A stretch of 57,888 nt of DNA, the filler included, from Jimgerdemannia flammicorona (lineage: Eukaryota), in assembly GCA_003990765.1 (NCBI GenBank). It is 3 parts of 3 records of this genome, joined end to end, with 100 filler letters (N's around TTAATTAATTAA, not from the genome) between each part and the next. Parts side by side here need not be neighbours in the genome. Positions count along the whole stretch, not along the records: positions 1 to 19,233 come from RBNJ01001993.1; 2 more parts are not named here. One strand, 5' to 3'. Shown one piece after another: positions 1 to 50,619 of the stretch. How positions within the stretch are numbered: position 1 is the first letter of the stretch; each line of letters starts with the position of its first letter. Below the pieces are notes generated by a model, which was not told the origin of the DNA, searched no databases, and worked only from the letters and a program-made list of their open reading frames with translations. Position numbers and translations under genes: made by a program.

Positions 1-60
1 GAGGGGGAGGGGGAAGGGGAAGGGGAAGGGGAAGGGGAAGGGGAAGGGGAAGGGGAAGGT
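1..60 (+). repeat. (GARGGG)n hexamer repeat encoding poly-(Glu-Gly)
   Basis: About 10 units in frame with the downstream acidic DDSDADDSEYST sequence. Confidence 0.85.
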
Positions 61-3000
61 GACGACTCGGACGCGGACGACTCCGAGTACTCGACGACGG
101 AGTCCGAGTCGGACTCCGAAGATGGTGCGAACGTGCAGGCCACCGAGGACGTGGCTGATCTCATCGCTATGTCGGTGGACTCATCGCCCACAATCCAGAC
201 GTTGATGTACCAGAGTGTTCAGGTCGTGCGTTCCACGGTTCCAGATCAGGCACAGGAGGCGATCGTTATTCCGGAATTCTCGCGCATATCTTGGCCGATG
301 CCTGTGATAGCCACAGTGCCCGCCGCCGCGTTCGTTCCGTATGCCGTCGATACTACCTCAACTTCCGTCGCGCCTATCCCATCCCCTGTCATGAGTGTCT
401 CAATTCCTGCCATGCTTACCTCAGCCGCTGCCACTCCCGCCTCGGTCCCTGCCACGCCTGCCTCTGCCGCGCGCACTTCAATCCCTTCCACGCCCACCTC
501 AGTTCACTCCACGCTTTCTTCAACAGCTATTACGCCTACATCTAATTCCGTGGCTTCTGCTAGTCCTACGATTGTCAAGACTTTCGCCCAGGTCTCGCTC
601 TACACACCAACGGTAGACTCCTTTACGCACGATTCGGGCCACACAGACAACCACGCCCCTGGCTCGAACGCGGCCGAGCCCGTCAACATGTTTGCGATGC
701 AGCAGAAGCTCAAGCGGCCGATACTTCGGTCCTCCGTCATCGGCCAGCCGAAACTGTTACCAGCACTGCCGTCTACCCATACGCAATTACTGCCGAAGCT
801 GCCAGCACTGCCACCTACCTCCACGCAATTGCCATCTACCCCCACGCAATTGCCACCTAACCCCATACAATTGCCGCCAGAACACGCGGAGTCCCAGTTC
901 CCGAACACGGTGGCCGCCACGCCGCAGCAGTTCCAGCGTTACATGGACTCGCATTCTACGTCCAAAGTACTGTTTCTGGACGTTCGACCGCGCGAGGATT
1001 TTGAGACGGCGCGTGTCAAGCACCGGTGTGTGGTCAATATCGACCCGGCGTTGATAAGAAATGGGTAATTTTGTTTTGTTTTTGTTTTTTGTTTTTCGTT
1101 GGGGAGCGGAGGAAGGAATCACTTGCCGACGAAAGAACCACTCACGGTGATCTTTATATGCCCATCATTGCTTGCTATCCACTTTGGCAGAGTTACAAGT
1201 GCGGATTTAGAATCCGCGCTCGCCACCGCCGCTAGGAACAGTGGAAATCGATCACGAGCAGTCGAGTTATCCTTTTTCAACCAACGCCACATATTCGACA
1301 TCATCATGTACTACGACAAGTGCACGTCGTCGACCAAGGCACCGACGAATCCCTTCGATCCGTTGCGGCAGCTGATCCAAGCGCTTTACGAGCGGGAGTT
1401 TTCGGCCAAAAGCCTCCCGCGGCCGCCCATTCTCCTGATCGGCGGCTTCGATGGCTGGGCGCGATGTTGGGGCGCAGACAAGGTGGTTGGGACAATGGCC
1501 GACGCCGGGAACAGCAAGACGGAGATGTACCCGTCAGTGGAGGACGGTGCAGAGCTCAGCAGCGTCCGTCGGCAGTCGTGGCGAGGATCGGCTGATGCGG
1601 CGGCGACTTTCGTGAGTGCTGGGCAGATGAGTGGCGGACAGGCCACAAGCCAGGTGAAAGTGCAACAGAGTGGCAGTAACGTGAACGACTACGTATGTAT
1701 CTCCTTTCATACACATCGTTACAACGGTTTTGTGTACAAGCTTACTATGCCCATTCTGCCCACCCATAAATTTAACATTGTTCGATATGACAATCCAGTT
1801 CCACCCGTTTTCGCAAACCAGTATGACGCATCATGATAATGTATGTTTGAGATGTTACTGTTGCGTAGATATTTAACAATTCGGAAGGGGAGAGGGGGGT
1901 TATTATCTATACCCCCAAAGAATCAAAAGAATATTAATTACTCATCGCGGTACCATATACGTTTCAATACCAACACTCTTCCCCATTCGCTCTTGCTACT
2001 GGCACGACACCGATGACCATCAAGCCTTTGTCGAAGTTACCACAAAATAACACATCGTCTGCCTTCATACCTTCGCCCATCACACCTGACTCTCCTCGAA
2101 CACCATCCGAGTTGCCGATCCCGGATTATTCACGCCCGCGCCTACCATCAAATCCTCCCGTCATAAACTCTTTCCCGACACTTACGTTCGATCACCAGTC
2201 CAGAGGTGCCTCCATGCCTATGAATTCCGGTCCATCGGTAATGAGCTTAACTAACGCTGCCGGACATCCACCGAAATCCAACAATGTCTCCGTGTCTTCA
2301 GCCCCCTTTCCACAACCATGGTTGCCTTACAATACGTCCACTCAACCAAGCTCGCAGGCTGCTCATAATGCAAACAATCCGTCATATCGTGGCAACCTTT
2401 ATCCTCCCCTTACCAATCTTTCTAACACCTCGGCAAACGATGTGTCGTCCTACAACACGGACAACATATACCCCCAAATTCCATCCTTCCCCCGATCTCA
2501 GCACGTATCCACCCCTTTGGCGAATTGGCCACAGACAACGAGTACACCACTAGATTCCTCCACACCACCGAACCACAACTCTGCGCCGGCGTCCCATACG
2601 CTCGTCAGTCCATATCAGCCGCAGCTGCATCAGACACAGACGATACAATACAGTTGGCCGCCGAACCCGAATTCTGCGCCGACTCAGACATCAAATCAGA
2701 ACACCAACACTTACTTTACGAATTCAAGGCAGATACCGCCACTACAACCTATCAACACAGACTTTTCTCAACAGCACTCGTATCAAAACACGTATGCGCC
2801 GGATCCGCTATCCACTCGAGTCGGCGAATATTCCAACTATTATACGCAACCGCAGCCATCATTACATCAACGGCCGCACTCGGCAGGTAATCCTCCTACC
2901 CACGTCCCTGCCACCTCTTCAGTATTGGCCGTGGAACAGTGGCGTCGCGCGATCGCGCGACCTGCTCAGGTTCCACATGCGAATTTGCCCGCCACCTCTC

Positions 3001-3590
3001 TTCAGGAGCTCAAGGGTCGAGCATTGGTGAGTGTTCTGGAAAAGGAGAACTATTTGATTAGCGGATGGATTAGCTTGGCGAAAAAACTGGGTGAACAGGT
3101 GGGTTCAAACGATGGGTTTGTCGAGATATAAGTATATATACTAGTCAGAAGCATTCTGTTCCACACCTTGCTAATAAGATTTAGTGGCCGACCTGTCCCT
3201 TAGGGAACGGAATGTGATGGGCAGGACGACCTTGAAAACGCATATGTTTCATATCGAAAGTGTATCAGGTAAGCTAATAGAAAGCTATCAGTTGTATGTT
3301 GAAATTCTTGTCATTACTTTTATATTCACTCATCTGTTCTCCCTCATGCCAGCATCGTCTTTGAAATCATTCCAGTACATTCTGGCTATGCAATTATTCG
3401 GAATGACGAGAGATATTTGGCTCTTCGAAAGGTATACAGGAGAGGCAAAATATCTATTTAGCAATTTCGTGGTTCTTACAGCGCTCTAAATGTTTCTTAC
3501 GTTTCATCGAATCAGGTGGCGGGCACGTATATGCCCCGCCTCGAAGAGATTACCCGGATTTTGATGCAGAGGTTCAACGCTTCTAGATAA
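1..3590 (+). CDS. 5'-partial Doa4/USP8 paralogue: acidic/low-complexity region, rhodanese-like domain, Pro/Ser/Gln-rich linker, C-terminal USP8-dimer/MIT-like domain; no UCH catalytic domain in the window
   Basis: Inferred exons <1-1064, 1191-1692, 1799-1840, ~2025-3098 (acceptor uncertain), 3204-3268, 3353-3431, 3516-3590; GT-AG and phase-consistent. Rhodanese segment VLFLDVRPREDFE...FDIIMYYD...LYEREFSAKSLPRPPILLIGGFDGW matches the neighbour's [13 protein letters not shown]...FDLIVYYD...[25 protein letters not shown]-terminus ATSLQELKGRALV...[37 protein letters not shown]...LRK|VAGTYMPRLEEIT matches the neighbour's N-terminus. Confidence 0.7.
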
Positions 3591-4117
3591 TCAAGATTGT
3601 CCTCCACAGTGATATATATACTAGAACTATTTAATCAATGCCATATTTTATAACACAACATAATACAAATTTTGACTTCGATTTTAAGTGCAGGCAAAAT
3701 TGGGCTATGTCGAAATACTACATACATTACTGGTAAACCCGCGAGTCACCCTCACCCAGTCCACTACAAGCGGTTGAAATAATTGATGTATAAAATGAAT
3801 TATGTGAAGTATTTTGATGTATTCACAACATAGAGAATATAGAATACAGCAGTGAGGGGAAACATTACGACAAAGTATTACAAAAATCTGTATTAGGGAA
3901 ATAACAAAAACAAACGGAGAAAAAAGTTCAATAGTAAATATACAACTGAATTATGTGCAAAAACAGCACAATCCACATATATATATACATATTGCTATAC
4001 AACCGAAATCGGGGTTCTGCCTGATAGAAATGTTCCTTCGTCGCCATCAATGGCTTCACCGAATGGATATACAATATAATTACCGCTCCAAATGAGTCAC
4101 ACTAAGCATTTTGATCA

Positions 4118-7100
4118 TCACACAGTCGATTTGACGTAGTAAAGTGTGTAGGCGGCGCGCGACTGTTGGGTGAAAATGTGCACACAACGAAGGAAAAATT
4201 AGCAGAACCCTTGTTTTGCCTGATCGAGTTCAGTCACGATACAGAAACCACCGTGGGTATGGTGATGCAGCGAATGCATAAACATGCTAAAACACCCATT
4301 TGAAACTATAACGGAGAAGGAAGGCAATATTTCCGTACGCATACCAGCCCGATATGCAAGATGAAAATCAATCAATCGCCACACTTACCACGACTGCACG
4401 TTCGTCCTCGAGCACTGAGAACCGCGAATCATCAAAATTGTGCCACTGGCCACGATAACCATTGCGTACAAACGCAGTATCTACGGATAGCAGTATCGAT
4501 GATGAAATGAAAAGAGATATGAGAAAACGACGTCTAGCAATCATGAAACTACTCTATGTATGATGTCTTTCATATGAATTCAGCAACAAAACAGTCGATG
4601 CAGAGAATACTAACAATGTCCACCGTTGAGCCCGCCAAAGTGGTTCTATGATGAAAAAAACAGCATCGAAGAAAGGAAAGGGCAATATGTTAGGATCGAT
4701 TATTAACTTTTCGCACGATCAGTTTGTAGAACACACATGGTAGATAAACTTCAAAGAAAGACATCATTACCGAAACAGCATAAAGATCATAAAGGGAATG
4801 TCCGTTCGGGGCGACCACGCCGTTGGGGCCCTTGATCGCACCGTTCAAAAAATAAGATGGCATAAAGGGGGTCAAATCCAACCCCCTAGCAAGCGAAAAG
4901 GCAAATATGGCGTTCATTAGAGTTTGTCATAGTCCACCAATTGTATCATGATTTCTTCAAACAGTGTTTGATGACAATGCATGATATACTATACATACCT
5001 GAGCGGGAATTCTACCATCGTCTCAAGTTTGTCACGGAATGGTCCATTGAACGAAAAGCGCTTTAAATGGATGAGAAGCACGTCCGGCAGCCGTGAAAGA
5101 GTGAGACGTTTTGACGCTCGTCGCCGAATCTTGCAACGCGGGCATAGCCTGAAATTGGATAGAAAGATACGGTATGTGGCGATCGGAATGAATGTCCAAG
5201 CCGCGTGATTCAAGATTGACAAAGTTATCACTCAACATACCACGCGTCAGTTCCCTCCAAAACCTCTTCGCGCACGAATTTATCGAGGCATTGTATCAGT
5301 GTCACTCTTCCCTGCCCGGGTTTAGGGATCGGCAATGAGAGATACATGAACGTATTGTAGGTCGTCGATGTCTTGCGTTATATAAATAAAAAATGTGGAA
5401 TGTTGGTCTATAGCGCGAATATGCGAATAGGTTCACTGATCAACACGATCGTCAGGCACTCTTTTCCTCGCCCATTTTCACATACCCCCCCTCGCTAATA
5501 AATAACCCAACTAATTTATCCTCCAACACAGTCCCCGAAGCTCACCTTTCTGCACGTCAAGCACTGAAGCATGTTCTTGAACTGCCCTTGGAACATGCTC
5601 ACAATGATGCTCGTGTTTCGCGTTAGGTATCTCTGCCACGCAAGCGTGCTTGCCTCCCAATCCGGCAACTTTTCGAAGCGTTCCTCCTCCTCCTCTGTGT
5701 CCGGGATTGCAGACGGCCGTTCCATGATTGTGTTGAGGTCCTCGTGTAGACCGTCGAGCAGGAAGGCGAGAAACTCTTGAGAATCCTGCTGTTCCGAACC
5801 CGCAAACTGGGGAGCGAAGCGGCCGATGGCTTCCTGTTGGACGTAAAAAATATGAGAGACTGAAATTTTGATCGAGGACTGAAACATACACCTCGAATTC
5901 ATATACGAACTGTAATCACGAGTGGTAACTCGTAGAACACATACCCTGAAGGTGACCGGCGAAACAAATGAGTACGATTCGCTCCACATCACACGAATGA
6001 GATTTGCGTAGGCTTCGGCGAGGACACCCTTTGTACCTAGCGGGTTTTGCTTGTTTATGTGATGTTTGTAAGACCCAGCTAGTATATTTTGTTGAAACAA
6101 AAATGGAAAGTCAAACTCATTAGCGAATCGGGCAGAAATCCCGGATCAAAGCACACGCTCAACAACATCCCATGTTACACGATTGCTGAACAAAAATAAT
6201 AATAAATTAAGTACTCACTCAAGAAGTACCTCGCCAACGGTGTCGTCCCGCTTAGACACTGTATAACCGAATTCATAAAGCATGTGTTCCCCAAATTTTT
6301 CAGCCCCGTCGTCCCGATCGACACGGCACCCAACTGCGAGAACGAGCTCGGCGACATGGGTAGCTGGCCCGCGGCGGGCCTGATCCCGACGTTGGGGTCG
6401 ATGTTCGACACGTGGTTCTTGGGCGGGATGGGCGGCGGCTGTGGTGGAGCGGGTCCGCCAAGAGCCGGGGGCGGCGGAACAGGCCGGCTGGGTTTCGGGG
6501 CGAGCGCGGGCGGCGGAGGCTCGTAGAGAGTGTTGGTGCTCGCAGTGGAGGTAAAGCCATTGTACGGGTTGTCAATGAAGGTATTGCGACGACTGAGACG
6601 GGTCGCGCCAGCGGCCGCAATCGTGCCTGCAGCGGATGCAGGGACGCCAGCGGATACAGCGCCAGGATATACCGTATTGTTCGGTTGCGCGGTCGCAGGG
6701 TCGATGGACATGGGCTCATCGCTCAATATACGTTGTTGGATCAGCGGCGGTTGTGGTACTGAAGAGGGACGATATGGCTGCGGTATAGGCATGTTCATTT
6801 GAACCGGTGGCGGTACACTGGCCTGATAGCCATTGTACTGCGTGATGGGCGGGGCGGCTGGGCCGAAATTTGGTTTAACCATAGATTGAACGTTGTTCCC
6901 GTCGCTTTGTTGGTGGAACTGGTAATGGTTTCGCAAATGTATATACATGAAAGCGATACCCGGTGCAAGTGTGGCAGGAGGGGAGTCGTATGCGAAACCC
7001 ACGTCAATGCTCGCCATAGAAATTAATAATAATAATAAATAAATAAATAAATAAAATAAAATAAAACTCACAAAATCAGTCACCGTCCGATTGATGGGTG

Positions 7101-9330
7101 GGAGCTCCGTCGTGTTTGCTCTACCTGGCGGCATCCTAGGGACATAGGCAGTCGTAGGAACAACACCACCGCCCACCCCTCGCGATGCGACGTTTTCCTT
7201 CTGTGTATTTTCAGCTGATCCTCCTCTGCTCCCGCCATCCTCCTTGAACACGTACACTCCTTTGTCCTTGGTATATGCGCGCCACGCCTCAAACCCGCCC
7301 ACCAACAGAACCGGCGTCCTCGGCAGGGACTTCGTGAACTCGTTCTCGTAGATGGCATTTTTGAGATTCTTAAGCGGGCTCACGTATGCGTAACCATTGA
7401 CACCAGATGGAGTGTTGTCCGATATGGAATTGCGGTCGTAGTAGACGATCAGGTCGAACCGATTGCGATTCGCGAACAGAAGTTTGTCGGTTTCGGGGTT
7501 CATGATGAGCGAGGATTCGATGTCGACGGATGTAATACTATCCAAGCAAGCGAAGGGGGGAGGAGTATTTAGCACACTCAATCGTAAAAAAACCCAATAT
7601 TTATAAATCACCAGGAACAGAAGGTGTCGCTATATAAACAATCTTTCCCTTTAACTTGTACTCATCACGCATCACTCCGCCCAGTTTTGTCCTCTCTTTT
7701 TCCGGGAGAGGGAGAGAATCATTTTCCACCTCTATCCACTACAACATACACAAAACGACATTGTGTAGCTTCCTCCTCTTTTTCTTTCCAACGTAACAAA
7801 ATATAACACGAAATGGCAACGGCAATATTAACAAAAAGGGAAGCATCCCCAATACCTACTTATTCCGTAATGTCAAAGGCTCCACTTGTATGATATACTT
7901 GTGTCTAACACATCCTCTCTCAAACTCCTCCTTCGGCCTCACGTCCATTAGCAGCACCGACGGCGGGTTCTGCTGTTGCGTCAGGTACTTGGCCAGCTGC
8001 TCTGGCATAATCGTCAGGGTCATCGGGAAATCGTTGTTCGTGAGCGAGGGAAGCGGGAACGTCGGTATAGCCTGGCCGGAAGAAGGCGGTGTGCCTGCAG
8101 CGTTCAAATGATTCGAGCCTGGGACCGGGATTAAGGATGGAATGACGGTCGAGCCCGGTGGCTGCCACGAGGCCGGTTTGGTCGAGGCTGGGGGCGGTTG
8201 CGGGGCGCCCACAACCCAATTTTGGGGTTTCGTGGAGGTCGAGGGAATGGGCGGCTGGGACTTCGATTTTTGGTTCGGCGGTGATATCTTGGCGCGGTTT
8301 GGAGAGGGAAGGCTGCTGGGCGGGGAGGGTAGGGAATCTAAGGCGCTGAGGTAACGCTCATGTGACTGTGTGGTGGGCTGTGTGGTGGGCTGTGAAGGCG
8401 GACGGTTGGAAGACGAAGCCGACCGAGGGTTGGAGTCAAATGATGATCGGCCGGACGCGCCGCCTCCGTTCTGAGAGGATTTAAATTGACCCTCAATAAT
8501 CCCAGCTATTTCCTCCACCTTAAGAAGGATTTTCTCGACGGTGCGCTGCATGAAATAAATGTCACACCAATATGATGAGATTTCTCACCGTCGAGAGGCA
8601 CTACTACAAACCGGTCGCCGACCAAGCAGATAACTCAACTACATGCAAACCAAGCATAATACTAATATGCTCACCTTCCGCAGATCAAAATAAGCCGGGT
8701 CCTTGCTACTTAATAACGTGCCGTACTGCGAATGTTTCGGTAAGATTTCTACAATAATTCTGTGTGCAGCATAGAATTTGTTAATATAAAGAGGATGCGG
8801 AATCTGAGGTATGTCAAAGTTATGAAACACCACTTACGTGCAACCCTTGAGATAGGAAACGTATGCGTTTTCAAGATCGCCAGAGGCGTAGGAAGCATCG
8901 CCCTAGGTATATTTTCAAAAAAAAAAAAAAAAGAGAGACAGAGAGAGAGAGAGAGAACGTTGCGATGGATATTAATAACGGAATGTGAGCCTCTGGTAAT
9001 CCAGTAGTTCTATCAAGAACTTGGGTGGTTTATTGGCAATCTTTTCTGGACGATTAGCTAGCATTTCGCCAATTGAATCGGTCGAATGGCACTGCTCAAG
9101 ACCTGCCAACCCCACTCTCACCTCCTTTCATCAAGCACCAAATAACCCAATCTCCCCCTTACCTGCTCATACGCCTTGGCTGCTGAATTAATCCACGCTC
9201 TAATGCCATACTTGTCGGCGTCCCCCGTGGAGACAACGGCGCGGGCTCTGAGCTCGGCGAGAGATGTGGCGGGAGCCTGGGGAACGCCGGCAGGACCAAA
9301 CGGGTGTGGCGAGGGTGCTGGTCCGCTCAT
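4118..9330 (-). CDS. DOA4: Ubiquitin C-terminal hydrolase, Doa4/Ubp4/USP8 family (USP8-dimer/MIT - rhodanese - peptidase C19)
   Basis: 14 phase-consistent exons: 9330-9163, 8902-8838, 8759-8675, 8545-7860, 7537-7072, 6918-6219, 6078-5945, 5833-5546, 5371-5241, 5148-4999, 4885-4771, 4645-4615, 4480-4389, 4162-4118. Cys box [50 protein letters not shown], His box [32 protein letters not shown]. Confidence 0.95.
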
Positions 9331-9427
9331 GTTCTCTTTGTGGGTGTTGTGTGTTGTGTTTCGGTGTAGAGCTTGGAACGGAGGCTCGAGCAAAAGAAAG
9401 GGTCTGGTCCTCAGCGTGACTTCCGTT

Positions 9428-9435
9428 TGACGTCA
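9428..9435. promoter_or_regulatory. Perfect CRE/ATF (bZIP) palindrome TGACGTCA about 100 bp upstream of the DOA4 ATG
   Basis: Sequence match and position only; a CCAAT on the minus strand lies about 20 bp further upstream. Confidence 0.35.
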
Positions 9436-9882
9436 CCTTGGGCCGTCACCCATTGGTCAGGTGCTCGCTACAATCCTCTTGGCAGGAGGATGATCACCTT
9501 CCCTTCATACAACCCACATGCACCACCAAAGACCAAATAAATCTACGCATATAGTTATGTGTGCCATATGTATATATATATATATATATAATGTGAACCC
9601 GTTGGCAAGGTATTCAACGTCTAAGATAAGGTATGATATATGTGCATGATGTAACTACATGTGTGGCAATGAAAGGTTGTTCACACAATCTGACGATAAA
9701 GGAATGTAGAAGAAAGAGGGTAATTGCGAGTACGAGATAGGTGAGAGAGTCAAAATCCATGAGGGCTAGTATCAAAAATCAAATACGCCCAATTATCTGG
9801 CTTAATGTCGGTTTTCTCAAATACAAAACTAAGGGCGGCCATGAACTCTCGGCGTGCCTGTCTCTTCCGGCCCTAACCCTCC

Positions 9883-12750
9883 CTAGACCTCCATGCTCAC
9901 CTCCCTATACCAATCGATCCCCTCCCTGACCCTATCTCCAATCAACCATCCCGCGACCTTCTCCGACCCCTCTTTTGCACCCATGACCCCGTTCACATTA
10001 ATCCCTTCACCCTCGTCATCCTCGCTCCCCGGCGCGCTACTCGACGCGCTCCCCGATCGACTCCTCGCCATGCCGACCTTCTCCGCCCCCGCCGCCGCAG
10101 CCTCGACCCTGATCTCCATCAGGTGCCGGATGTTGGCCTCGGATCTTCCGCCCACAAGATAGTCGCACATACGCTGGCGCTCGCGGTCCTGCAGGCAGGC
10201 CATGATGATTTCGCCTAGGATCGGGTCTACATTCTCGGGGATCGTGGGCATCGTCTGGTTCGGATCCGGGGCTGGGACGCCGGCCTCCTCGAGGCGCTGT
10301 AGTAACGCAAGATGGTACAGATGGCTTCGGGCCTCGTGCAGCTGATCCGTGCGCATAACGTCCAGGAGCCGTGTGGTGACGTCATAGACCTCGTACGAGG
10401 AGAGGACGCCCTGCTGGGCGAGCGTGAGGATCGAATCGAGGGTGGCTGCGTAGTGGTTATGGTGGTGCGGGAAGCAGAGCTGGTAGTGGCGCTGCAGGCA
10501 GACATGTTGCGCTTCGCGGGCGTGGGCTTCGAACGTGGAGAGGTAGTAAGCGAGCATGCGCTTCTTGTGGATTGGTGGGTGTTGAGGGTGCGTGATTTTG
10601 GAGTAAAGAGCGGTGGGGGTGGGCATAGGTGGTGGTGGGGGAGGATGCGCATATGGATAAGGTGGAGGATGGCCCTGAAAGCCCGGAGACATTTGCTGTT
10701 GCGGCGACATTCCCCGCGGTTGTAGCAACGGCGAACGTTGGGGCGAACGTTGGGGAGGAGGCAGCTGTGGAGAGCTCGAACGAAGAGATTCGTTGCTTGC
10801 ATGTCTTGAATTGGGAAGCGAACGTGGACCGTCTGTCCCATCAGGGAACGAACCGAGGACAGGGGAAGCATGCAGCATTTGCGGGTTCGGGTGCACATGT
10901 TGATGCTGATAGTAGGGCTGTGCGGGATACAAGTGCATCGGCGCCTGGTGGTTCGGGTACGGCCGACCTTGGGGCTGTGCTTCATCCGGTGGTGGCATCG
11001 TCATCTGTGTCTGTGGTGGAATAAACTCGGAGGGCGGACGCTGACGGAAGCTGGGTTTCCTGTACGCCTGTTGCACACGCAGCTTACGCCGCGTTGACGA
11101 GTTCCGTCGCACAATTTGCGTGAGAGACCGCCGTTTTGCCATCGCGCTCGCCGTTGCGCCCGATACCGCCTCCCCATCGTCCACGAAATCTGACGGGGGT
11201 AGTTGTTCTACACAATCAGACGGTGGCATAACGTCTTGCGCTTCGGCTTCCGTTTCGTTCTGATTTTCCTCCATTACGATAAGTACTTTCTCTTCTGCTG
11301 TAATCGCTACTGTAGTCTCCTTTACCTCCATCGTCTTTTTTACCTCTATCGTCTCCTTTGCCTTCGTCGTCTCCTTCGCCTCCGTCGTCTCCTTTGCCTC
11401 CGTCGTCTCCTTTGCCTCCGTCGTCTCCTTTGCCTCCGTCGTCTCCTTTGCCTCCGTCGTCTCCTTTGCCTCCGTCGTCTCCTTTGCCTCCGCCGTTTCC
11501 TTTGTCTCCGTCGTTTCCTTTGTCTCCGTCGTCTCTTTTGTCTCCGTCGTCTCTTTTGCCTCCTCATTTTTTTCAGAAACCACGATGTCTGCCTTGATGC
11601 TCTCGGTACCGAACCGTGACGCCAATTCCGAATATTCCTCTACCAGCATCCGAACCATCTCCTTGTTTCCATCATTTTCGCATTTCATCATCAACCACGC
11701 CCATACCTCTTCCATTCCTTCCTCAAACCCGATTTCGGAACAGCAAGCGAGCACACCGACCCCTTTCGCCAGATTGCCGCTAATTTCTCGCGTCCACTGC
11801 TTCGTGTACATAAGTCGAATCGTGGCGTAGAAATTGACCATATCTTCTTCGGAGACCCGCGGGGGCAGGCGCACGATAATCTGCTTGGACCCGGCAGCGA
11901 GCTGGTGCTTGAAGAAATTGGACTGGAAAAGGACGAGCGAATGCAGGTGGAGGACGGTGGGCACGCCCGCGCGCTGGGCCATACGGCCCTGATCTTCGAA
12001 GGCCAGGCGGACGTCCGAGTAGACGCGGCCGTGGGACCATAAGAGTTCGCCGACGGTAGGGTACGTGGTGGCGTTGCGGGAGGAGGGTTTGGAGGAGTTG
12101 GGCGAGCGCTGCGGTGTCGGCGGTGGAGAGGGAAGCTCCTTGTCAATGAAGATTTCGCCGATCGAGCGTCGCCGTTCGTCGGGTTCGTCTGTAGAATTCA
12201 CGGTGATAATGATGTGTTTGGGATCCACAGTGGTGGTGGAGAAAGTATCTTTCGTGGCTGGGTCAGCAGACGGGTTTGTGGACAAGGTCACAAGTTGAGC
12301 GGGGATAGATTCAGACAAAGGCGGCTGGCCAGACTTCACGTGCTCTCCTCGTTGTACCACAACATGTACAGACAGCACGTCCGACGACGGGGCTCGAATG
12401 GTGGTTGCCTCTTGCGCTGTTGCAGATGAGGGCCGTTGAATGGTCGAACCAGCCAGCTCCTGCCGTGACTCCTCGGCCACAGGCGAGGTCGCGATTGCTT
12501 GGTATGTTGCCGAGTTGACTTGATGCTGAAAGTCGACCTGTTGCTGAAAGTCCACCTGTTGGAGCTCCTGCCCCACCGGAGATGGTGGTGGAAGGCCCTT
12601 CATGGCAAAGGCGGGCCGGTTGTATTGATCTTCCGGTGGTGGTGTTGGGAGCATATGGGCTTCAACATGTTTTTCGAAGGTGGAGGGCAAGGGATAGGAT
12701 TTAGCGTCTGCCGGCGGTGTAGGCGGCAGTGCCCTTGTTGGAGAAGGCAT
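9883..12750 (-). CDS. 955-aa single-ORF protein with a BTB/POZ-like domain, ETTEAK repeats and Pro/Gln-rich regions
   Basis: Long ORF. YSDVRLAF...LHLHSLVLFQSNFFKHQL...FYATIRLMYT fits the BTB pattern SDV.l...HK.vL...S.yF...f..llrylYT. Confidence 0.8.
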   Translation of the reverse strand: MPSPTRALPPTPPADAKSYPLPSTFEKHVEAHMLPTPPPEDQYNRPAFAMKGLPPPSPVGQELQQVDFQQQVDFQHQVNSATYQAIATSPVAEESRQELAGSTIQRPSSATAQEATTIRAPSSDVLSVHVVVQRGEHVKSGQPPLSESIPAQLVTLSTNPSADPATKDTFSTTTVDPKHIIITVNSTDEPDERRRSIGEIFIDKELPSPPPTPQRSPNSSKPSSRNATTYPTVGELLWSHGRVYSDVRLAFEDQGRMAQRAGVPTVLHLHSLVLFQSNFFKHQLAAGSKQIIVRLPPRVSEEDMVNFYATIRLMYTKQWTREISGNLAKGVGVLACCSEIGFEEGMEEVWAWLMMKCENDGNKEMVRMLVEEYSELASRFGTESIKADIVVSEKNEEAKETTETKETTETKETTETKETAEAKETTEAKETTEAKETTEAKETTEAKETTEAKETTEAKETTKAKETIEVKKTMEVKETTVAITAEEKVLIVMEENQNETEAEAQDVMPPSDCVEQLPPSDFVDDGEAVSGATASAMAKRRSLTQIVRRNSSTRRKLRVQQAYRKPSFRQRPPSEFIPPQTQMTMPPPDEAQPQGRPYPNHQAPMHLYPAQPYYQHQHVHPNPQMLHASPVLGSFPDGTDGPRSLPNSRHASNESLRSSSPQLPPPQRSPQRSPLLQPRGMSPQQQMSPGFQGHPPPYPYAHPPPPPPMPTPTALYSKITHPQHPPIHKKRMLAYYLSTFEAHAREAQHVCLQRHYQLCFPHHHNHYAATLDSILTLAQQGVLSSYEVYDVTTRLLDVMRTDQLHEARSHLYHLALLQRLEEAGVPAPDPNQTMPTIPENVDPILGEIIMACLQDRERQRMCDYLVGGRSEANIRHLMEIRVEAAAAGAEKVGMARSRSGSASSSAPGSEDDEGEGINVNGVMGAKEGSEKVAGWLIGDRVREGIDWYREVSMEV
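11345..11560 (-). repeat. Coding 18-bp tandem repeat, about 12 copies (ETTEAK/ETTETK)
   Basis: (ctttgcctccgtcgtctc)n on the plus strand. Confidence 0.95.
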
Positions 12751-13739
12751 TGCAGTTAGAGGGAGAAAAAGAAGAATTGTTCAGGAAAGAAAGAGATGGG
12801 CAGGGATTTGGCCTTTTAGCGAAATGGCATGAGCTATGGTGGTCGTTGTATTATAATAAAAGTTGGTCGGACGTCTAGCCCAATCCTCGTAATCGTCGAA
12901 AATAAGGGCACCGTCTGCAGCGCTAGAAGTGGTAAAAATAGCTGCATGTAACCACCAAGCATAGGAAATCTCGCTTTTTCGGGCCAGCATCCTCCCATGC
13001 GCGCGTAAGCCACCGTTGTGGCATTGTGGCCAGCTGCAGGAACCTGTCGGCCCTCGTCTGCCTAGAAACCAGAAGGATGCATCGTGCTACGACCGGATCG
13101 AATCACAGCAAAGCCAACCTTCGTTTCATGCTAGCAGCGAAGATTCATCCCACGCAACCATATGGCCAGCACACTTACAAATGAGAAAAGGACGCAGAAA
13201 ATGTCCCAAGACAGTCTGGTCTCAATCGTGATGTGACTAATTACCCCCTTACCTGCCTATTCGCATACATTTTTGTCTGGACTTGCTAAAAATCATGTGG
13301 AAATACAGCACTTATGCCTATCACATGTGAGAGCTCGGCCATTCGTCGAAATGGCAAACATAAAAAACAAATGCTTGTATGAAACATATTCATTATTAAT
13401 TGAGACCAGGGCTATTAGGCAACGGAGCACCACTACACAAAAAGGATCTTGGAAACGTGACGCGTGCCTTCTTAATTCGTCATATTACGAGTTATCTGCT
13501 CCGCAGTTCACTTGGAAACGTGTTCGATGACGTATATCGCTTCCGGAAATTAAACTCGAAAGAAAAAAAGTCGGTGAAGGACCAAACCGGACGAAACGGA
13601 GACTAAAAACTGAAAAGATGGAGATTCTTCATCCCCATTCGTCCATGCTTGAAAATCATTGGGAAAAATCAATATATAAATTTCGCAAATGCCCCTCTTC
13701 GATATGGGCCATCGTAAGTCACCATTTTTTATGCAAGAG

Positions 13740-13774
<35 letters not shown>

Positions 13775-15246
13775 TGATATCTCTGACCGTTTTCTTCTAC
13801 TCAAGAAGAAAGATGGACAGAACTTTATCTCGATGCAGACTGATTCGGTTTGGTTTTTCAATCTTAATCTACATGGCAAGAGATATCGATCAGATGTGAG
13901 ATAATCCATATAATAGTGGCTCAAAGCCAAGTGAAGAATGCCTCTATTTATTTATTTGCGCGGACGGTTTCAAATTCCCCTACTAGCCATTCGTCTACCT
14001 CTACCTACAGCAAACAACTGCCTGAATTGAATCCATGAACTATATTTATCGCAATGTTGCTGGGGTATCGGAGATCACTTGGGCAATGGGCATCTTGCAC
14101 GACCAGAATTGTTACCCCATATAGATTTTGTGACGCACCTACTCACCAACCAGTTGTGCTTTGCAAATATTTCGCTCTGCACATTGTCAGCTCCCGATCA
14201 TCTGCAAGCGAGCTAGTCACATCTCCTTTATCCACAAACCTGAGCCCAGTGCCCCCCCCAATCCCGTGTGAAGAAAGGGAGTGCTGACAGTGGAGCGGCA
14301 TTGAATTAGGATCGTGGGGAGAAATCTCTTTCATAGCAATCGTACACCTCTGCCAAGCTGAGGCGCTTGGCGGCCTCCGGTTCTTCGGTGTTACCATAAT
14401 TCCATTTTATTTTTAGTAAAATCGCGCAGCGGCTCCTTCCTCCGTCGATATCGACAGCACCACGTAAGCTGATCCTAATTCCGTTCTTTCCCGAAAATTA
14501 CATCCTACCAACCGAAGCTTTCATCCCCCACACATCAGCTGAGGAGAGGGGGCTTTTTTCTTCTTGCCGCAGTTTACCGTGGGAAATAATCTTCACCAGA
14601 TAGCGGTGCTCCATCTGCGCGTTTGTACGAGGGGCCAGGCAACGACGATGTGGTTGTTTGTTCCCAAACAGGTAGAACCCCACAAACTCTTCCTCGCCGT
14701 GGGACTGAAAATAGGTCGACTCCCTCGTTGTCGGAGCATTTGGATTAGAGAACCATAAGGAGATCGCGTGGCCTTATTCAAAGGCCGCAGGGGATGTCGA
14801 AAGAATATGCAGGCTTGGAGTCATAAAATAAAACCGTCAAATCCTATCCTACAAAATAAAAATTGTCATGGTGCATTGAAGTGAAGGGATGGGAGATGTT
14901 TGTAGTTGACTGAAAGGAGGTAAGGAAGTTGTCAACGAGTGCTGTTCCCGGGTGCGCGAAGTTTATATACTACAAACTCTTGACGTCTGCTCTGGCAACG
15001 GCCATTGAAGGCCATTGTAAACATAAAGATAAATGAATACGTTAACGTTCCTGCTTCTCAACTTTTTTGTATTGATGAGAGTCTCAGTCTACCGTTCGAT
15101 TTGCCATCCACAGCTTATTTATTAGTGACCGCGCCACGTGGAGGTGGCAGATGTCAAGTTGTGTATGAAAAGGAAAGAAAAAAAGGGTTGTCGTAGGTAG
15201 CCAACACAAACGATATTTTCGAGAATCATATACCTAGCCACAAATC

Positions 15247-16116
15247 CTATTGGTGCGACGCTGCCGACAAGTTCAATTCACAATTCTCTGCCTTCTTAGT
15301 ATGCTCGTCGATATCGACCGCATCCCAGGGATACACCAACCACGTATCCGGCATATCCACTGCTGCAAAATAATACTTCATCACGTTCTCCGGTAACGAC
15401 ATCTTCTTTTTCTTGATCTTGTTGTGAAGCACAAACACGCCCAGCTTGGTCTCCCTTTCTCCGGGCCCCAGCCCCATCGCCTCCTCCTGCTTCTTTATGT
15501 CCTTGACCAGCTCCGCGACGGCAAACGCCAGGGTCTGCCGCGTGTCGTCCACTTCATCTACAATCAGGATGTTGCGCCCGACCAGGTTAACAAGGGAGTC
15601 GGCACCCCCAAAGTTGAGCCACTGCGTCTTGGTGACCTGCGGCTGGGGCGGGGCCGCCGGGGTGCTGAACCCGGAGTCCGAGACCACATGGCCAGAGGCG
15701 GCGACCTCTCCGTTGAAGATCTCGAGCTCCTCGTAGAGGGAAAGGCCGATGGCCTGGATAGGGATGTTCTTGTTGCGTTTTTTGAGGAAGGTGCGGAGGA
15801 TGCGGGCGGGGATGAAGCCGCCGCCTGTTGTTAGGGGGGGAAATATGAAGATCGCGCGTTAGTGTATATTGGTGGGTGTGTAGGGAGTTGTGGAGCGCGA
15901 AAACCAAAAGGCGGACACAAACCCCCGATGGCAATCATGATGTCCGGTTGGAAATCGTCATTGATGGAAAAACGCTCCACGGACTCGCGAATGGCAGTGT
16001 GGATCTGGTTGTAACTGAGGCAAGGTGAGCGTATAATCGTCCCCACGTTGTCAGGTAGCATAGGATGATTGGGCACTCTACCTGATATATAGCTTCGAGC
16101 TGTCGTTACTTGTCAT
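15247..16116 (-). CDS. Purine (hypoxanthine/xanthine-guanine) phosphoribosyltransferase, fungal HPT1/XPT1 type
   Basis: Exons 16116-16082, 16014-15923, 15824-15247 give ISYNQIH...DIMIAIGGGGFIPARILRTFLK...LSLYEE...TQW..., the PRPP motif ILIVDEVDDTRQTL, and WLVYPW. Confidence 0.92.
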
Positions 16117-16305
16117 CGTTCACATTTGATGAATTACAGCTACAGGACAGAATGTCGACGGCGCATGCTCGGTGGCTTGGCTATTGTGCGCCTCATGCCT
16201 CATATAGAAAAGAAAAGATGGCATTGACTCATATCACCTCACACCGACCTTGTCATACATATTAGAAGAATATAAATTAAAAAAGGGGCTATGGCACGGG
16301 GAACC

Positions 16306-16310
16306 AAAAA
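16306..16310 (-). terminator. Pol III oligo-T terminator of tRNA-Asn
   Basis: TTTTT immediately after the discriminator base. Confidence 0.75.
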
Positions 16311-16384
16311 CGCTCCTGGGTGGGCTTGAACCACCAACCTCCTGATTAACAGTCAGACGCGCTAACCAATTGCGCCACAGAAGC
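16311..16384 (-). tRNA. tRNA-Asn (GTT), intronless
   Basis: Minus strand GCTTCTG-TGGCGCAATTGGTTAGCGCG-TCTGA-CTGTTAA-TCAGG-AGGTT-GGTGG-TTCAAGC-CCACC-CAGGAGC-G folds as a cloverleaf with A and B boxes. Confidence 0.97.
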
Positions 16385-17639
16385 GATTAGCGATAAACAT
16401 GGTGTCATTAAGAATTTATATAATATTTGGATCCCAGAATCACACTATTTTTACCTACTTCGTTCCTTCTCCCTGAGGATTAAAGGTAGAAGTTGATCTT
16501 CCTAACGTGTCATTGCTCTCACTCCATCTATTCTCAAAACAATACAATGTGATGAAACTTGTATGTCGACGTTTCTGGGTACAAATATTTTGAAAAAATA
16601 AAAAAAATAAAAAAAAAAAATACTGCGATTATGTGTAACTCACACCTTGACCTTTCAAATGTGGTACCCTCGGTGTTTACTTCCGTGGTTATGGATGGCT
16701 CGAGTCAGATCCGATAGACAGCATTGGCCATTACTAGCCACCGCTGTCTTGAATCACCATATGTCCAACTGAGACCCTAAGGTTCTAAGGACAGCAAAGC
16801 CTAGAGGAAGATCCTCCGAGCGTATTGTTTATCATTATAAGCCACCACTAGCCCATTCGTCACTCACACCAGCCAAGGTGGAGGTAGGACATCTTGACAA
16901 ACACTCCCCGGAGTATTTGTGCTCAAGACAAAAGGGGGGCGTGTAAGGGTACGATTTTCTGGTCGCGTTTTGAGTCCATTCTTGACCGCCTTTCTTGAGT
17001 CGGCTTTCGAGACGTGGTTCGATGTATTGAGTTTTCTCACGACCCAATCTTTTTGTAAGGGCTGATCCCTGAGTAATTAATGCCTTGGTGTTTCACTGAA
17101 AGTTGACTAAAGTTATTAAAATATAACTGAAAGATATTTGTACATTTATTTCAAAGGCTATCTAGTAAGTAGCAAGAGTATGTGGATTGGCAGAATGGCA
17201 TGTCATTGTTGGTTGCGAAATCCAGATTTCGTGACATCAAACAAGCAAAAGAGCATCGCGCAATGCCAATCACAAAAAGGAGCGTTGCGCAAACAAACAA
17301 AAATAACAAAGAGCAAAAAACATAGAGAAAGAAAAGCCTGCATGAATTACATAAGGAACGATTGCCATTTATAGTCAATAGAGATCGTTAGCCATCATTA
17401 GGAGGAAATCTCTGAGCGATGTGGTTCAATTACAACGATACATAAGTATTATCTACTTTGTTCTCTAGAAAATGCTGATTAGAGAATATAAGGATACAAT
17501 ATAAAAGGTGCCAAACAATGAAAACCCGATTTGGAAAAAGTTTTCGAAAATCTCTAATCGAGACCCAAGACCCAAGACTCAAACCCGACGCTAGCAGAAT
17601 AAAACAAATCAATACTACAAAGGGAACTAGATCGTCCAA

Positions 17640-18934
17640 TCACGCCTCTAATAGATCCCTTGGTCTCCAATTACGTCGGCGAGGGCGCGTGGTAGATGTA
17701 TTAGACGCTTCGAAAAGGGACTGCGCGGCCGGCAGAATATCGGATAGCTTTTGAATGGATTGGCCTGTGTGTCCGACGGCAGTGCTACGAGAGGCGGTCG
17801 TTACTGAGGACGTAGTGGTAGGAGAGGTGGGTATCGCGAAACCCATTCGCTGGTTGTCGGTATCGAAGATTGTGTAGAACTCCTCAATGAAGACATCACC
17901 TATAGAGGTGGTACGGAGTGGGTTTGAAGGGTAGGAAAGAGGGAGTTGGTGGATGAGCTGGGATGAAAATGAAGATCGACTCGGAAATGCGAACCTGTTA
18001 GGAAAGTGAGACATACCTAGGAACCACATATCCGTTCGGTCCTGTGATATTATTAACAGAGGCCAAAATTCAATGAATCAGTATATTTGCGAGCTCACTT
18101 CTGAATTCCGAATGGCAAGTACTCCCTCCACATCTCAATCCCTTAGCCAGAATCACATACCGACAGTGCTTGCAGCTTAGAGTAGCATAAGTTCTCGGCC
18201 TCGTTGTAGAAGTAGATGTAGCTCTGGTATGGAATCTGAAACTCGTATGCCCAAATCACGATGGCTAGGTTGGGCAGTGTGCGCGCGTGGGCGCAGTCGA
18301 CTTTGTACATCGATGTCACGGAGTCAAATTTCGCGCCCATGATCTTGTGGTACTCGTCCGCCTGGGCCTGTGGCGCGATCATCCAACTGGTGCCTGTTTC
18401 GAGAAATGCGTGAGTGCATACATACATATAAAATATACCAATAGCGGCAGGCAGAATCACAAAATATCATCCCCGCCCCACATACCCGTATCGATGAATG
18501 CGACGGCCGTCTTCTGCACCTCCACAGATTGGCTTCCCAGGCGTACCCCCTTGAGTCCTATGGTCCAGAACGGAGGCTCACCGTTCGAGGGGTTCTGCAG
18601 GGGTACCCAAGCGATATCCCCGGTGAAGCGAGCGGTGTCAATGTCGCCGAACAGGATCTCGCCGCCGTTGGTCGAGTGGGATTGGTTAAATTGCAACGGG
18701 TTCATCCAGACGGAGAAGATGTTGCGCGCAATCACATTCTGCAGTCGCATGTTTTCCACGGCGAGGACATAGGCTACATTAGGGGATTGAGGGGATGAGT
18801 TCCATATGGGGCGCGATAACAGGTGGTGTACTTGCAAGAACCATTCAAATTCCGTGTGAGATGTGACTTACCGTTGGCGTCATCCACCGGGTAATATCCG
18901 CCCAGGTAGAAAGCACCCAACCCGAAAAGTCCAT
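17640..18934 (-). CDS. Pepsin-family (A1) aspartic protease, 3' half; 5' exons lost at the gap
   Basis: Exons 18934-18872, 18773-18486, 18393-18161, 18041-18017, 17899-17640 give DGLFGLG, IFSVWM, GGEILFGDIDTARFTG, second catalytic motif AFIDTGTSW, WFLGDVFIEEFYTIFD..NQRMGFA, then a Ser/Thr-rich tail. Confidence 0.9.
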
Positions 18935-18978
18935 CTAAGAAAACCAGTCAGTAAATAAAATAGGCTGCGTCAATCTTC

Positions 18979-19233
18979 TCCTTCCAAACATTCCTCCCTC
19001 CCTCGAAACTTCCTTCCAAACATTCCTCCCTCCCTCAAAACCTCCTTCCAAACATTCCTCCCTCCCTCGAAACCTCCTTCCAAACATTCCTCCCTCCCTC
19101 GAAACTTCCTTCCAAACATTCCTCCCTCCCTCGAAACTTCCTTCCAAACATTCCTCCCTCCCTCAAAACCTCCTTCCAAACATTCCTCCCTCCCTCGAAA
19201 CCTCCTTCCAAACATTCCTCCCTCCCTCGAAAC
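18979..19233. repeat. 31-bp intronic minisatellite, at least 8 copies, running into the gap
   Basis: Unit ~ccttccaaacattcctccctccctc(g/a)aaac(c/t)t. Confidence 0.95.
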
Positions 19234-37499: not shown

Positions 37500-38516
37500 C
37501 TGGTATATATGCTTTTAATCTTGATTAGTGAAGTTCTATTTTCATACATCTTATATTCTGTAACTTTGAGTTAACTCAGCTTCATAATCTGTAACTTTAG
37601 TTTGACTTAGCTTAGAATTTTTTATCAATATCAAAAGTTTTTTCTCAGTAGTATATACTAATTGACATACTGAGATTATTAATTTTGAGCTTAAGCTAGA
37701 TTCTCAATTATAATTTGGCTCAAGTTGCATATTTAGAGAAGAAATTCTTTAATAGCTTTAATAGTAAAGAGTTTATCTATAGTTCTAATAAGAGTCAGAG
37801 AGGTGTTTGGATTTTATTCTATATTGATAAAGAATGAGATCATTTTAAGGAAGTTTGTTTGTTGTTATTATAGATAAACTCAACTATAGTAAGATGTTTA
37901 TACTAATTATCTTATCTATAGAAAATATAGTTTCTTAACATTTGCTCTAGAGTCCAGTTTATTCTTTCAGTTTAGCTATTAGTTTTAGGGTAAAAAGCTA
38001 TAGATAGTATTAGTTTTGTTCCAAGGTATAAGTATAGAGCTTTCCAAAAATAGCTAGTAAATTTCATATCTTAGTCACTAATAATGATCATAGAAAGACT
38101 ATGATAGTAGAAGATATTATTAAACAGAAGAGTAGCAATTTTAGGTACTATTATAGTAGTAGATATGAAGTAGGTTTGTTTGCTGAGATAATCAATGAAG
38201 ATAATAATTGTATCTTTTCTGTTCTTAGTTCATAATAGTTATATATCCAATTGGCAGAAAGTACTGAAATAGGATAAAGTAGTTCAGATTTTATTAGAGT
38301 TAAGAACTTGTTACATTAGCAGATATTACAAGAAGTAATATAAATCTTCAACTAGTCTGTCATATAGGGCCAATAGAAGTTTTGGAAGATAACTTCATAG
38401 TATTTATTAAATTCTAGATATCTGGCTATAAGAGAATGATGACATTCAAACAGAATAGTTCTTTAGAAATCTTAATTATTAGAAACATACAATCTATTCT
38501 TATAATAGATAGTATT

Positions 38517-38520
<4 letters not shown>
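37500..38520 (-). mobile_element. Ty3/gypsy integrase remnant (likely the outermost element of the nest)
   Basis: LFNNIFYYHSLSMIIISD*DMKFTSYFWKAL..LGTKLILSIAFYPKTNS*TERINWTLEQMLRNY is a decayed HGLP..IVSDRD..FTS.FW...STAFHPQTDGQTER.NRTLEQMLR. Confidence 0.85.
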
Positions 38521-38564
<44 letters not shown>

Positions 38565-38664
38565 NNNNNNNNNNNNNNNNNNNNNNNNNNNNNNNNNNNN
38601 NNNNNNNNTTAATTAATTAANNNNNNNNNNNNNNNNNNNNNNNNNNNNNNNNNNNNNNNNNNNN
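38565..38664. other. Assembly gap / contig-join spacer
   Basis: Same N44-TTAATTAATTAA-N44 spacer, preceded by a long poly-T. Confidence 0.97.
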
Positions 38665-50100: not shown

Positions 50101-50619
50101 CACATTGGGGTGAAAAGAGGATTTACATGCATTGGGTGGCTGGCCTCAGTATAAGGATTGACTGAATACTGATGACTGAATACTGGGGCCTGGATGATTA
50201 GAGGACTCTGGAGGTAGAGTGGTACCCATGATCAGACCACTGGAGACTATTAGAACAGGGGCAGTTTGGGGGAAGTAGAGATGGACCCAGACATTGGTAT
50301 CTTAACTCCTCTCTGCTGACTGAGAAGATATTATAGGACCTTTGGGCAGAGGACATTCAGGTGAAGGTCATAAGCTGGGTACATGAGGGCTTGCAAGTGG
50401 ATGTCTGATAGATGAAGTTGAAAGAGGCTATAAGAGTCTACTGGGGAGAAGTTGGTAGGGATACTGAGAGGCAGAGGAGAAAAAGAATATGGTATGCTTC
50501 TAATAGGTTGGTTAGATTGCAGATGGAATGGGCTGAGTTGATAAACTCTGGTAGGGTGGATGATTAGAGGTTAGTGTGAGCTAGATTGAAAGTAATGGAG
50601 TTGCAACAGACACTATAAT
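47151..50619 (+). mobile_element. LINE copy D: 5' half (5' region, ORF1 from ~47480, ORF2 endonuclease from 49560), probably the inverted 5' part of copy C
   Basis: ORF1 aligns with that of copy B; MNSTINIFSLNVNEL, DNFN, RID, SDH. It ends at ...ELQQTL, where copy C begins. Confidence 0.85.

Follow-up and report, generated by a model that had tools for sequence, protein, structure and literature searches.

The window, i.e. the whole stretch of DNA analysed (57,888 nucleotides from the root-associated fungus Jimgerdemannia flammicorona, assembly GCA_003990765.1), opens with two convergent genes arranged tail-to-tail. The gene on the minus strand (9330-4118) is an intact DOA4/USP8 orthologue, in which 14 exons encode 1051 aa comprising MIT, rhodanese and UCH domains in this order, the latter with its Cys and His boxes. 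The product is identical to RUP50002.1 at 716 of 723 positions, and at least 11 splice joints are seen in RNA contigs. Its plus-strand neighbour (<1-3590), referred to here as the paralogue, is a Doa4-derived gene with seven exons and the order rhodanese, linker, MIT, stop, encoding at least 966 aa. The window starts where the contig starts, and the 5' end of the paralogue is therefore absent. Both gene models were built from the window, with GT-AG introns throughout and open frames.

Exons of the paralogue are located at <1-1064, 1191-1692, 1799-1840, 2025-3098, 3204-3268, 3353-3431 and 3516-3590. The sequence begins with a hexamer repeat coding for Glu-Gly in frame (1..58), where genomic and RNA contigs alike break off. 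Exon 1 (1..1064), open at its 5' side, includes an acidic stretch, a region rich in Ser, Pro, Ala and Thr, and the first third of the rhodanese. The first Met is at 169, and the codons ahead of it have GC at third positions in 30 of 36 cases (p 0.009). Because these codons look coding, further upstream domains may exist, and the frame probably starts upstream of the window. The USP8-type rhodanese-like domain (aa 299-454, 895..1488) is split by a phase-2 intron (1065-1190), and its remaining part is in exon 2 (1191..1692), which ends at a DY|FH junction common to DOA4. A micro-exon of 42 nt follows (1799..1840), and the intron after it has an AAG acceptor. In exon 4 (2025..3098), a linker rich in Pro, Ser and Asn is joined to the first MIT segment, the equivalent of DOA4 exon 1. 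The linker carries a single YPxL-type motif (aa 661-665, 2397..2411), a weak candidate for a Bro1 V-domain site, with 0.13 such matches expected by chance. The USP8-type MIT domain (aa 859-964, 2991..3590) extends over four exons and reaches the stop codon. One of these exons, 65 nt long (3204..3268), is the counterpart of the DOA4 exon at 8838..8902 on the minus strand.

The paralogue domains are encoded by one spliced mRNA, which specifies an intact rhodanese of USP8 type, then a disordered linker, and at the C-terminus an MIT of USP8 type. Both domains were found together on single spliced contigs in two of four RNA runs (X1 and X2, from separate studies), as in record 6 of X2, which spans 59-4163. 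The 1692-1799 joint and the three joints within the MIT are present in X1 and X2, and a third study backs the joint 1840/2025. The micro-exon appears as 42 nt lying between its neighbours in record 1 of X1 and record 6 of X2, while a loose end ahead of 2025 in run X4 equals its last 17 nt. Gene models and spliced contigs thus confirm the domain orders given in a preliminary description of the locus, with rhodanese preceding MIT and a stop after MIT in the paralogue. The reservation made there, that the two halves may be separate transcripts or silent relics, fails since spliced contigs carry both domains. Both genes, the paralogue and DOA4, are expressed in the same samples. RNA also covers, without a break, the 527 nt (3591..4117) that separate their stop codons, and the 3514-4163 stretch of X2 record 6 crosses this space; the contig is unstranded, and its continuity is compatible with two transcripts. 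The unbroken cover indicates that the 3' UTRs of the two genes abut or overlap.

Relationship between the paralogue and DOA4

In blastp comparison, the two genes match at 30% over 319 columns in the rhodanese region (E 6e-32) and at 44% over 121 columns in the MIT (E 6e-22). Corresponding local scores are 298 and 198, whereas 500 shuffles reached no more than 55 and 48. A block of 36 aa, previously reported to align without gaps, does so with 18 identical residues. Doa4 profiles built without the window proteins detect the paralogue rhodanese with 136.9 bits (positions 2-147 of 150) and its MIT with 68.0 bits (positions 2-104 of 107), and most of the 150 rhodanese matches among those listed are Doa4-like. 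Conserved columns are retained at 9 of 9 positions in the paralogue MIT vs 8 in DOA4, and at 27 of 38 in the rhodanese vs 32. Pfam searches run exon by exon detected neither domain of the paralogue, as both are interrupted by introns. No homology between the linkers was detectable, alignment scores being below the shuffle means.

Five introns match between the two genes in position and phase, those flanking the rhodanese exon having phases 2 and 0 and those in the MIT phases 0, 2 and 0. The exon of 65 nt is common to both genes and holds the only blastn match between them (47 nt at 81%); the following exon is 79 nt long in the paralogue and 85 nt in DOA4. The proposal of DNA-level duplication with reordering is supported by these introns, which show copying of DNA, and by the domain matches. 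The introns give no date, since boundaries of the rhodanese exon also occur in other fungal Doa4 genes. In the MIT tree, the paralogue groups with DOA4 and Bifiguratus (support 80/94, unstarred), while its position in the rhodanese tree is not resolved.

Catalytic status and conservation

The UCH domain does not occur in the 966 aa visible. A second USP8-type UCH was not found among 44 contigs with a PF00443 match, in an assembly of 35,354 contigs which could lack one, and no third copy of the rhodanese or of the MIT (searched by the first-exon copy) was found in the assembly. The PF08969 profile search of the genome returned only an AMSH-like gene on contig C1282 and missed both known MITs, so the UCH and third-MIT searches are of limited sensitivity, and a diverged third MIT is less firmly excluded. 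A weak MIT-profile match on C17602 (E 0.03) was judged to be due to chance. Repeat-pattern searches of the assembly disclosed no upstream contig; the contig-end candidates C3826, C21165, C13622, C15431, C10088, C4352 and C14769 were rejected, as each shares at most 6 nt of repeat with the window start and lacks an end in a fitting frame. With the 5' end off both the genome and the RNA contig, the non-catalytic nature put forward in the preliminary description is an inference from the lack of a second USP8-type UCH in the assembly. It holds for the visible part, and we regard a 5' part without UCH as quite probable.

An orthologue of the paralogue rhodanese exon (P0001) was found in another sample, identical at 61 of 100 positions and forming a clade with the paralogue (support 100/100); in the same exon, DOA4 and Endogone DOA4 are 67% identical. 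Both members of the clade share an insertion of 8 residues in the rhodanese, and the stem branch is long (0.43-0.63), features that may reflect new partners. As the one orthologue found covers the rhodanese exon only, the reversed order is shown in a single species; 170 proteins were scanned, and all 21 of them with both domains have the MIT first. Three exon pieces gave no match in word-index searches of proteins, a weak result because one of these searches also missed P0001. JGI metagenomes yielded one locus among 333 candidates, with a 32% match, and no orthologue, and the ESM Atlas gave no match at ≥0.9.

The frame of 966 codons remains open across six introns despite >55% divergence, in agreement with the earlier observation. 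Among the variants listed, 6 of 12 in the paralogue are non-synonymous vs 1 of 7 in DOA4, and by this measure the paralogue appears to be evolving faster (Fisher p 0.17). The synonymous excess in the paralogue is borderline (p 0.05), and its 502-nt rhodanese exon has no variant in X1 or X2 among those listed. Retention of the paralogue under selection is supported by the orthologous exon at 61%.

Proposed function, origin and alternative explanations

Doa4 and USP8 combine a catalytic role with a poorly understood non-catalytic ESCRT-III role, and the function of their rhodanese is largely open (PMC5328624, PMC2064681, PMC12057046). The MIT-like N-terminus of Doa4 is described as binding the Vps20 MIM1, with Doa4 stabilising ESCRT-III non-catalytically (PMC5328624), its N-terminal 208 residues as sufficient for endosome targeting (PMC2064681), and both MIT and rhodanese of USP8 as peptide-binding domains (PMC12057046). 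By analogy, the paralogue MIT would bind ESCRT-III tails of the Vps20/CHMP MIM1 type and place the protein on endosomes, and the rhodanese would bind short peptide motifs of partners. Without the protease, the protein would occupy the docking sites of Doa4, and could compete with it, draw away the contact with Vps20 that is inhibitory, or perform alone the non-catalytic stabilisation of ESCRT-III. We give about an even chance to this reading, in which the protein is an adaptor without catalytic activity that docks on ESCRT-III and competes with Doa4 or tunes it in the sorting of membrane proteins. The gene would have originated by local duplication of DOA4 parts. The linker behind the rhodanese would then have been joined to duplicated DOA4 exon 1 instead of the UCH exons, and a new stop would have arisen behind the MIT; a simple inverted duplication would fail to give the reversed domain order. 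A more tentative extension is an Endogonales-wide gene in which the non-catalytic ESCRT-III-binding role of Doa4 has been split into a permuted protein, timing membrane scission or gating endosomal Doa4. Such a protein would represent an Rfu1-like regulator independently evolved from Doa4's docking modules, possibly co-regulated via overlapping 3' ends.

Adjacency to DOA4 does not imply regulation; human USP50 beside USP8 does not share the function tested (PMC11405836). Adjacency may mark only the origin of a non-catalytic scaffold moved to an unrelated job, with new partners or a new site, as the long rhodanese stem and the insertion common to P0001 could suggest. Precedents are Ubp5 of yeast, which moved to the bud neck by way of its N-terminus (PMC2064681), and USP50, unlike USP8 in the assay tested (PMC11405836). 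We consider this rather unlikely, given the fully conserved MIT columns and the binding of ESCRT-III tails reported for MIT domains of the family (PMC9477494). The unseen 5' part may instead carry a folded domain, be it another MIT, a domain of foreign origin, or a UCH that would make the protein an active DUB of permuted order, and the product would then be no plain decoy. The frame open to base 1, the coding-like codons before the first Met, the fragmented assembly, and an origin by tandem duplication, which predicts an upstream MIT, favour such a domain, but the searches for a second UCH and a third MIT, within their sensitivity, render it unlikely.

Direct inhibition of Doa4 via an MIT-MIT heterodimer, an idea that goes back to the preliminary description, would agree with the proposed dimerisation of the USP8 MIT (PMC12057046, citing Avvakumov 2006), the 44% identity of the two MITs and expression of both genes in the same samples; full-length USP8 is nevertheless described as monomeric in solution (PMC12057046), and we find this mode improbable. 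Far less credible is a transcribed relic without function. The 6 of 12 listed variants that change the protein and the linkers that cannot be aligned would fit it, whereas the long open frame, the orthologous exon, the rhodanese exon without a listed variant in X1 or X2 and the borderline synonymous excess argue against it.

Comparison with known systems

The reach of the case is modest, as it concerns a single fungal lineage and the general idea has known analogues in Rfu1, USP50 and Sfp47. Still, a natural protein with only MIT and rhodanese, the MIT at its C-terminus, offers a separation-of-function reagent testable in yeast, and the gene is a clean, intron-marked example of exon reshuffling next to its parent. 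With Doa4/USP8 (UBPY), encoded by the adjoining source gene, it shares the MIT (USP8_dimer, PF08969 type), the rhodanese-like domain and five introns, and differs in the reversed order, the C-terminal MIT and the lack of UCH downstream. The arrangement of AMSH/Sst2, in which a JAMM metalloprotease comes after the MIT, is not seen, the paralogue MIT being terminal; a separate AMSH-like MIT gene resides on C1282.

Yeast Rfu1 is small, has an MIT-like part akin to that of AMSH/USP8, and is not known to carry a rhodanese. It is reported to inhibit Doa4 at the late endosome without being catalytic itself (PMC6222566, PMC7653365), and to contact the V domain of Bro1 through a YPXnL motif (PMC8240856). 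A YPxL match occurs once in the paralogue, which is at least 966 aa long and includes a rhodanese; its MIT scores 138 against DOA4 and 45 against the AMSH-like gene of the same genome. These scores point to an origin of this MIT from Doa4 and not from AMSH and speak against orthology with Rfu1, and the parallel drawn in the preliminary description is no more than an analogy. USP50, a catalytically inactive USP8 relative adjoining USP8 head-to-head, acts in DNA replication (PMC11405836); it resembles the catalytic domain, while the paralogue, as a mirror image, keeps the two binding domains. In S. pombe, the Doa4 orthologue likewise has its targeting and its catalysis divided between proteins, Sfp47 recruiting Ubp4 and lowering its activity (PMC2935449). 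Ubp4, however, is devoid of the N-terminus and Sfp47 belongs to the SH3 proteins and is unrelated, whereas in J. flammicorona DOA4 is complete and the additional protein duplicates its modules.

The paralogue, DOA4 and their transcripts

The paralogue (<1-3590, plus strand) has 7 exons and at least 966 aa, while DOA4 (9330-4118, minus strand) has 14 exons, 1051 aa and the order MIT - rhodanese - UCH. Two blastp blocks link the proteins in swapped order, with paralogue residues 278-583 aligned to DOA4 260-550 (30%, E 6e-32) and 849-966 to 13-131 (44%, E 6e-22). These blocks had local alignment scores of 298 and 198, where shuffles reached at most 55 and 48; the linkers scored under their shuffle means. 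Domain profiles made from fungal Doa4 proteins, with both window proteins excluded, matched the paralogue over nearly their full length (rhodanese 136.9 bits, MIT 68.0 bits); a reversed-sequence control gave no match. The swapped blocks and independent profile scores thus establish the domain-swapped Doa4/USP8 paralogue adjoining DOA4 that the preliminary description proposed. It is not a family member in the strict sense, because the order MIT - rhodanese - UCH does not hold.

Five introns agree in position and phase in both genes, and the DNA-level duplication claimed from them is borne out; the common introns show DNA-level copying without dating it. The boundaries of the rhodanese exon recur where genomic ORFs of other fungi end (P0003-P0005), so these introns are old.

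The paralogue stretch is present in six runs, four of which (X1-X4) were compared, all as unstranded assembled contigs that represent graph paths, not single molecules. X1 and X2 were taken to be RNA by guess, and their GT-AG joints indicate splicing. Record 6 of X2 (3422 nt) covers 59-1063, 1190-1692, a 42-nt exon, 2025-3096, 144 nt (the MIT exons of 65 and 79 nt) and 3514-4163. Record 1 of X1, from another study, leads from 1190-1692 via 42 nt to 2025-3084 and into MIT; in X4, from a third study, the 17 loose letters 5' of 2025 correspond to the last part of the 42-nt exon. Pieces of the stretch are present in X3 as well, with no paralogue joint. Four paralogue joints were listed directly in the joint table and two more were deduced from record coordinates. 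The check proposed earlier, of junctions across 1840-2025, therefore places rhodanese and MIT in one mRNA in X1 and X2 contigs, with X4 in agreement at the joint. The paralogue is spliced as one mRNA, and two separate transcripts are unlikely because the joints are same-strand and in-frame.

Record 6 also crosses the gap between both stop codons into the last exon of DOA4 (3514-4163); the convergent 3' UTRs may overlap. DOA4 shares 716/723 residues with the public model (P0007, RUP50002.1) of Jimgerdemannia flammicorona, which starts inside an intron and omits MIT and the first third of rhodanese; the longer model, with MIT and full rhodanese, is backed by RNA. This identity places the host in J. 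flammicorona or a very close relative.

The 5' end and the catalytic domain

Window positions 1-19233 are contig C1993 from base 1, among 35,354 contigs in the assembly; the remainder is N or other contigs. The paralogue frame is open up to base 1, with the first Met at 169. G/C occupies 30 third positions in the 36 codons preceding it, against 64% overall (p 0.009), and the coding sequence therefore probably begins upstream of the window. The genome contig, like that of X2, ends within a hexamer repeat (1-58), and no upstream contig was found among those of the assembly. Contigs C1294, C2120, C4348, C14769 and C21165 start or end at similar G-rich hexamer repeats, which suggests that the assembly breaks there. 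The Zap1-type zinc-finger gene at C3826:1-1584 (minus strand) has an acidic tail that leaves the contig end and contains a Glu-Gly repeat of similar kind; having no overlap with the window start, it was rejected as the continuation.

A PF00443 (UCH) search of the assembly gave 63 matches on 44 contigs. Comparison of 49 loci spanning all 44 with the DOA4 UCH (22 with a match) revealed no second USP8-type UCH, the best non-DOA4 sum being 135 bits against 673 for DOA4. The nearest, on C22580, has a long insertion within the domain and is presumably USP4/15-type. Searches with pieces of rhodanese and of the first MIT exon, not exhaustive, returned the two known copies only; PF08969 detected neither known MIT, which marks their sensitivity limit. 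The earlier label "non-catalytic" thus gains from the 44 contigs and stays conditional on a frame open at the contig edge; the paralogue quite probably has no UCH domain.

PF08969 matches the MIT of an AMSH-like gene at C1282:21435-21608, directly downstream of a putative gene that we take to encode ribosomal protein S7. A 5S rRNA-like stretch, recognised by eye, adjoins dehydrogenase-like gene fragments at C21165:1200-1320. Within the window, all on the minus strand, are an intronless frame of ~955 aa (9886-12750) with some twelve 6-aa repeat units around 11260-11560 and only a weak Pfam Mucin match; a gene resembling by eye, in its motif, a purine phosphoribosyltransferase (15247-16112), with no Pfam match for the exon tested; and an aspartyl protease gene (17640-18867; PF00026 E 1e-15, one exon). 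A tandem repeat, open in several frames, runs to the contig end (18939-19233). Strong GC skew extends in long blocks over 33000-51000, on the other contigs of the window, first positive (+0.3 to +0.58), next negative (-0.37 to -0.5) and finally positive again (+0.4 to +0.5).

Conservation and origin

Exon 2 (1191-1692, the rest of rhodanese) was searched against 1.84 billion representatives (E 0.001 or better), giving 188 matches, the best 150 of which were listed. P0001, a genomic read-through on a 3101-nt contig from another sample, was the top match (139.9 bits); among the matches listed, the next genuine one had 58 bits, and P0002 and P0024 were discarded as repeat artefacts. P0001 and the paralogue share 61/100 residues, an 8-residue insertion and the intron at the end, and form a clade with support 100/100; for scale, DOA4 and Endogone DOA4 share 56/84 on the same exon. 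Part of the paralogue is thus conserved in another sample. Rhodanese before MIT was seen in one species, the P0001 comparison being limited to the rhodanese exon; both domains were detected in 21 of 170 proteins examined, all 21 MIT-first. Among the X2 variants listed, the paralogue has at least 6 synonymous and at least 6 non-synonymous, and DOA4 at least 6 and at least 1 (synonymous excess p 0.05; between-gene difference p 0.17), which fits a constraint that is weaker but present.

A single paralogue exon holds the linker that follows rhodanese together with the first segment of MIT; the DOA4 counterpart is linker and Cys box. The simplest history would be a tandem duplication of DOA4, a deletion fusing the linker of one copy to exon 1 of the next, a new stop codon 3' of MIT, and inversion with respect to the DOA4 copy that survived. 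In the MIT tree (19 rows; partial rows and two weak rows left out) the paralogue groups with DOA4 and Bifiguratus (80/94), and sisterhood to DOA4 was not rejected (p 0.37). In the rhodanese tree it is placed beyond the Doa4 clade of Mucoromycotina. A sister relationship to Jimgerdemannia plus Endogone DOA4 was rejected both with 26 rows (p 0.005) and with 22 rows after removing four more long ones (p 0.039); grouping with all Endogonales, presumably the order of J. flammicorona, (p 0.059) or Mucoromycotina (p 0.22) was not, the groups having been chosen after viewing a tree with few columns and a long stem. A two-step origin, with an older rhodanese copy and later MIT capture, is possible.

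Proposed function and comparison with known systems

In published work, the MIT-like N-terminus of Doa4 binds the Vps20 MIM1, a contact that inhibits Doa4, and Doa4 stabilises ESCRT-III independently of catalytic activity (PMC5328624). Its first 208 residues are enough for endosome targeting, and its rhodanese is without a catalytic site (PMC2064681). Seven ESCRT-III tails are ligands of the MIT of human USP8 (PMC9477494); MIT and rhodanese of USP8 are described as domains that bind peptides, while dimerisation of the MIT is under dispute (PMC12057046). Given this biology and the conserved columns kept (9/9 in MIT; 27/38 in rhodanese), the likeliest job, at roughly even chances, is that the paralogue would dock alongside Doa4 on ESCRT-III and leave ubiquitin uncut.

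As a Doa4 regulator, which we infer it to be, the docked paralogue may dampen Doa4 or help it, and sequence alone does not decide between the two. A new job unrelated to Doa4 is a minority possibility, and an extra domain in the upstream part of the paralogue is slightly less probable still. Direct inhibition of Doa4 by a heterodimer is improbable, and a relic very improbable indeed.

The paralogue's architecture is well supported and testable, with a reach of one lineage. It is apparently undescribed so far: no rhodanese-then-MIT protein was met in literature listings and abstract openings, mostly non-subscription. The paralogue resembles Rfu1 by analogy only (PMC6222566, PMC7653365, PMC8240856), and USP50 (PMC11405836) and Sfp47 (PMC2935449) are further analogues.
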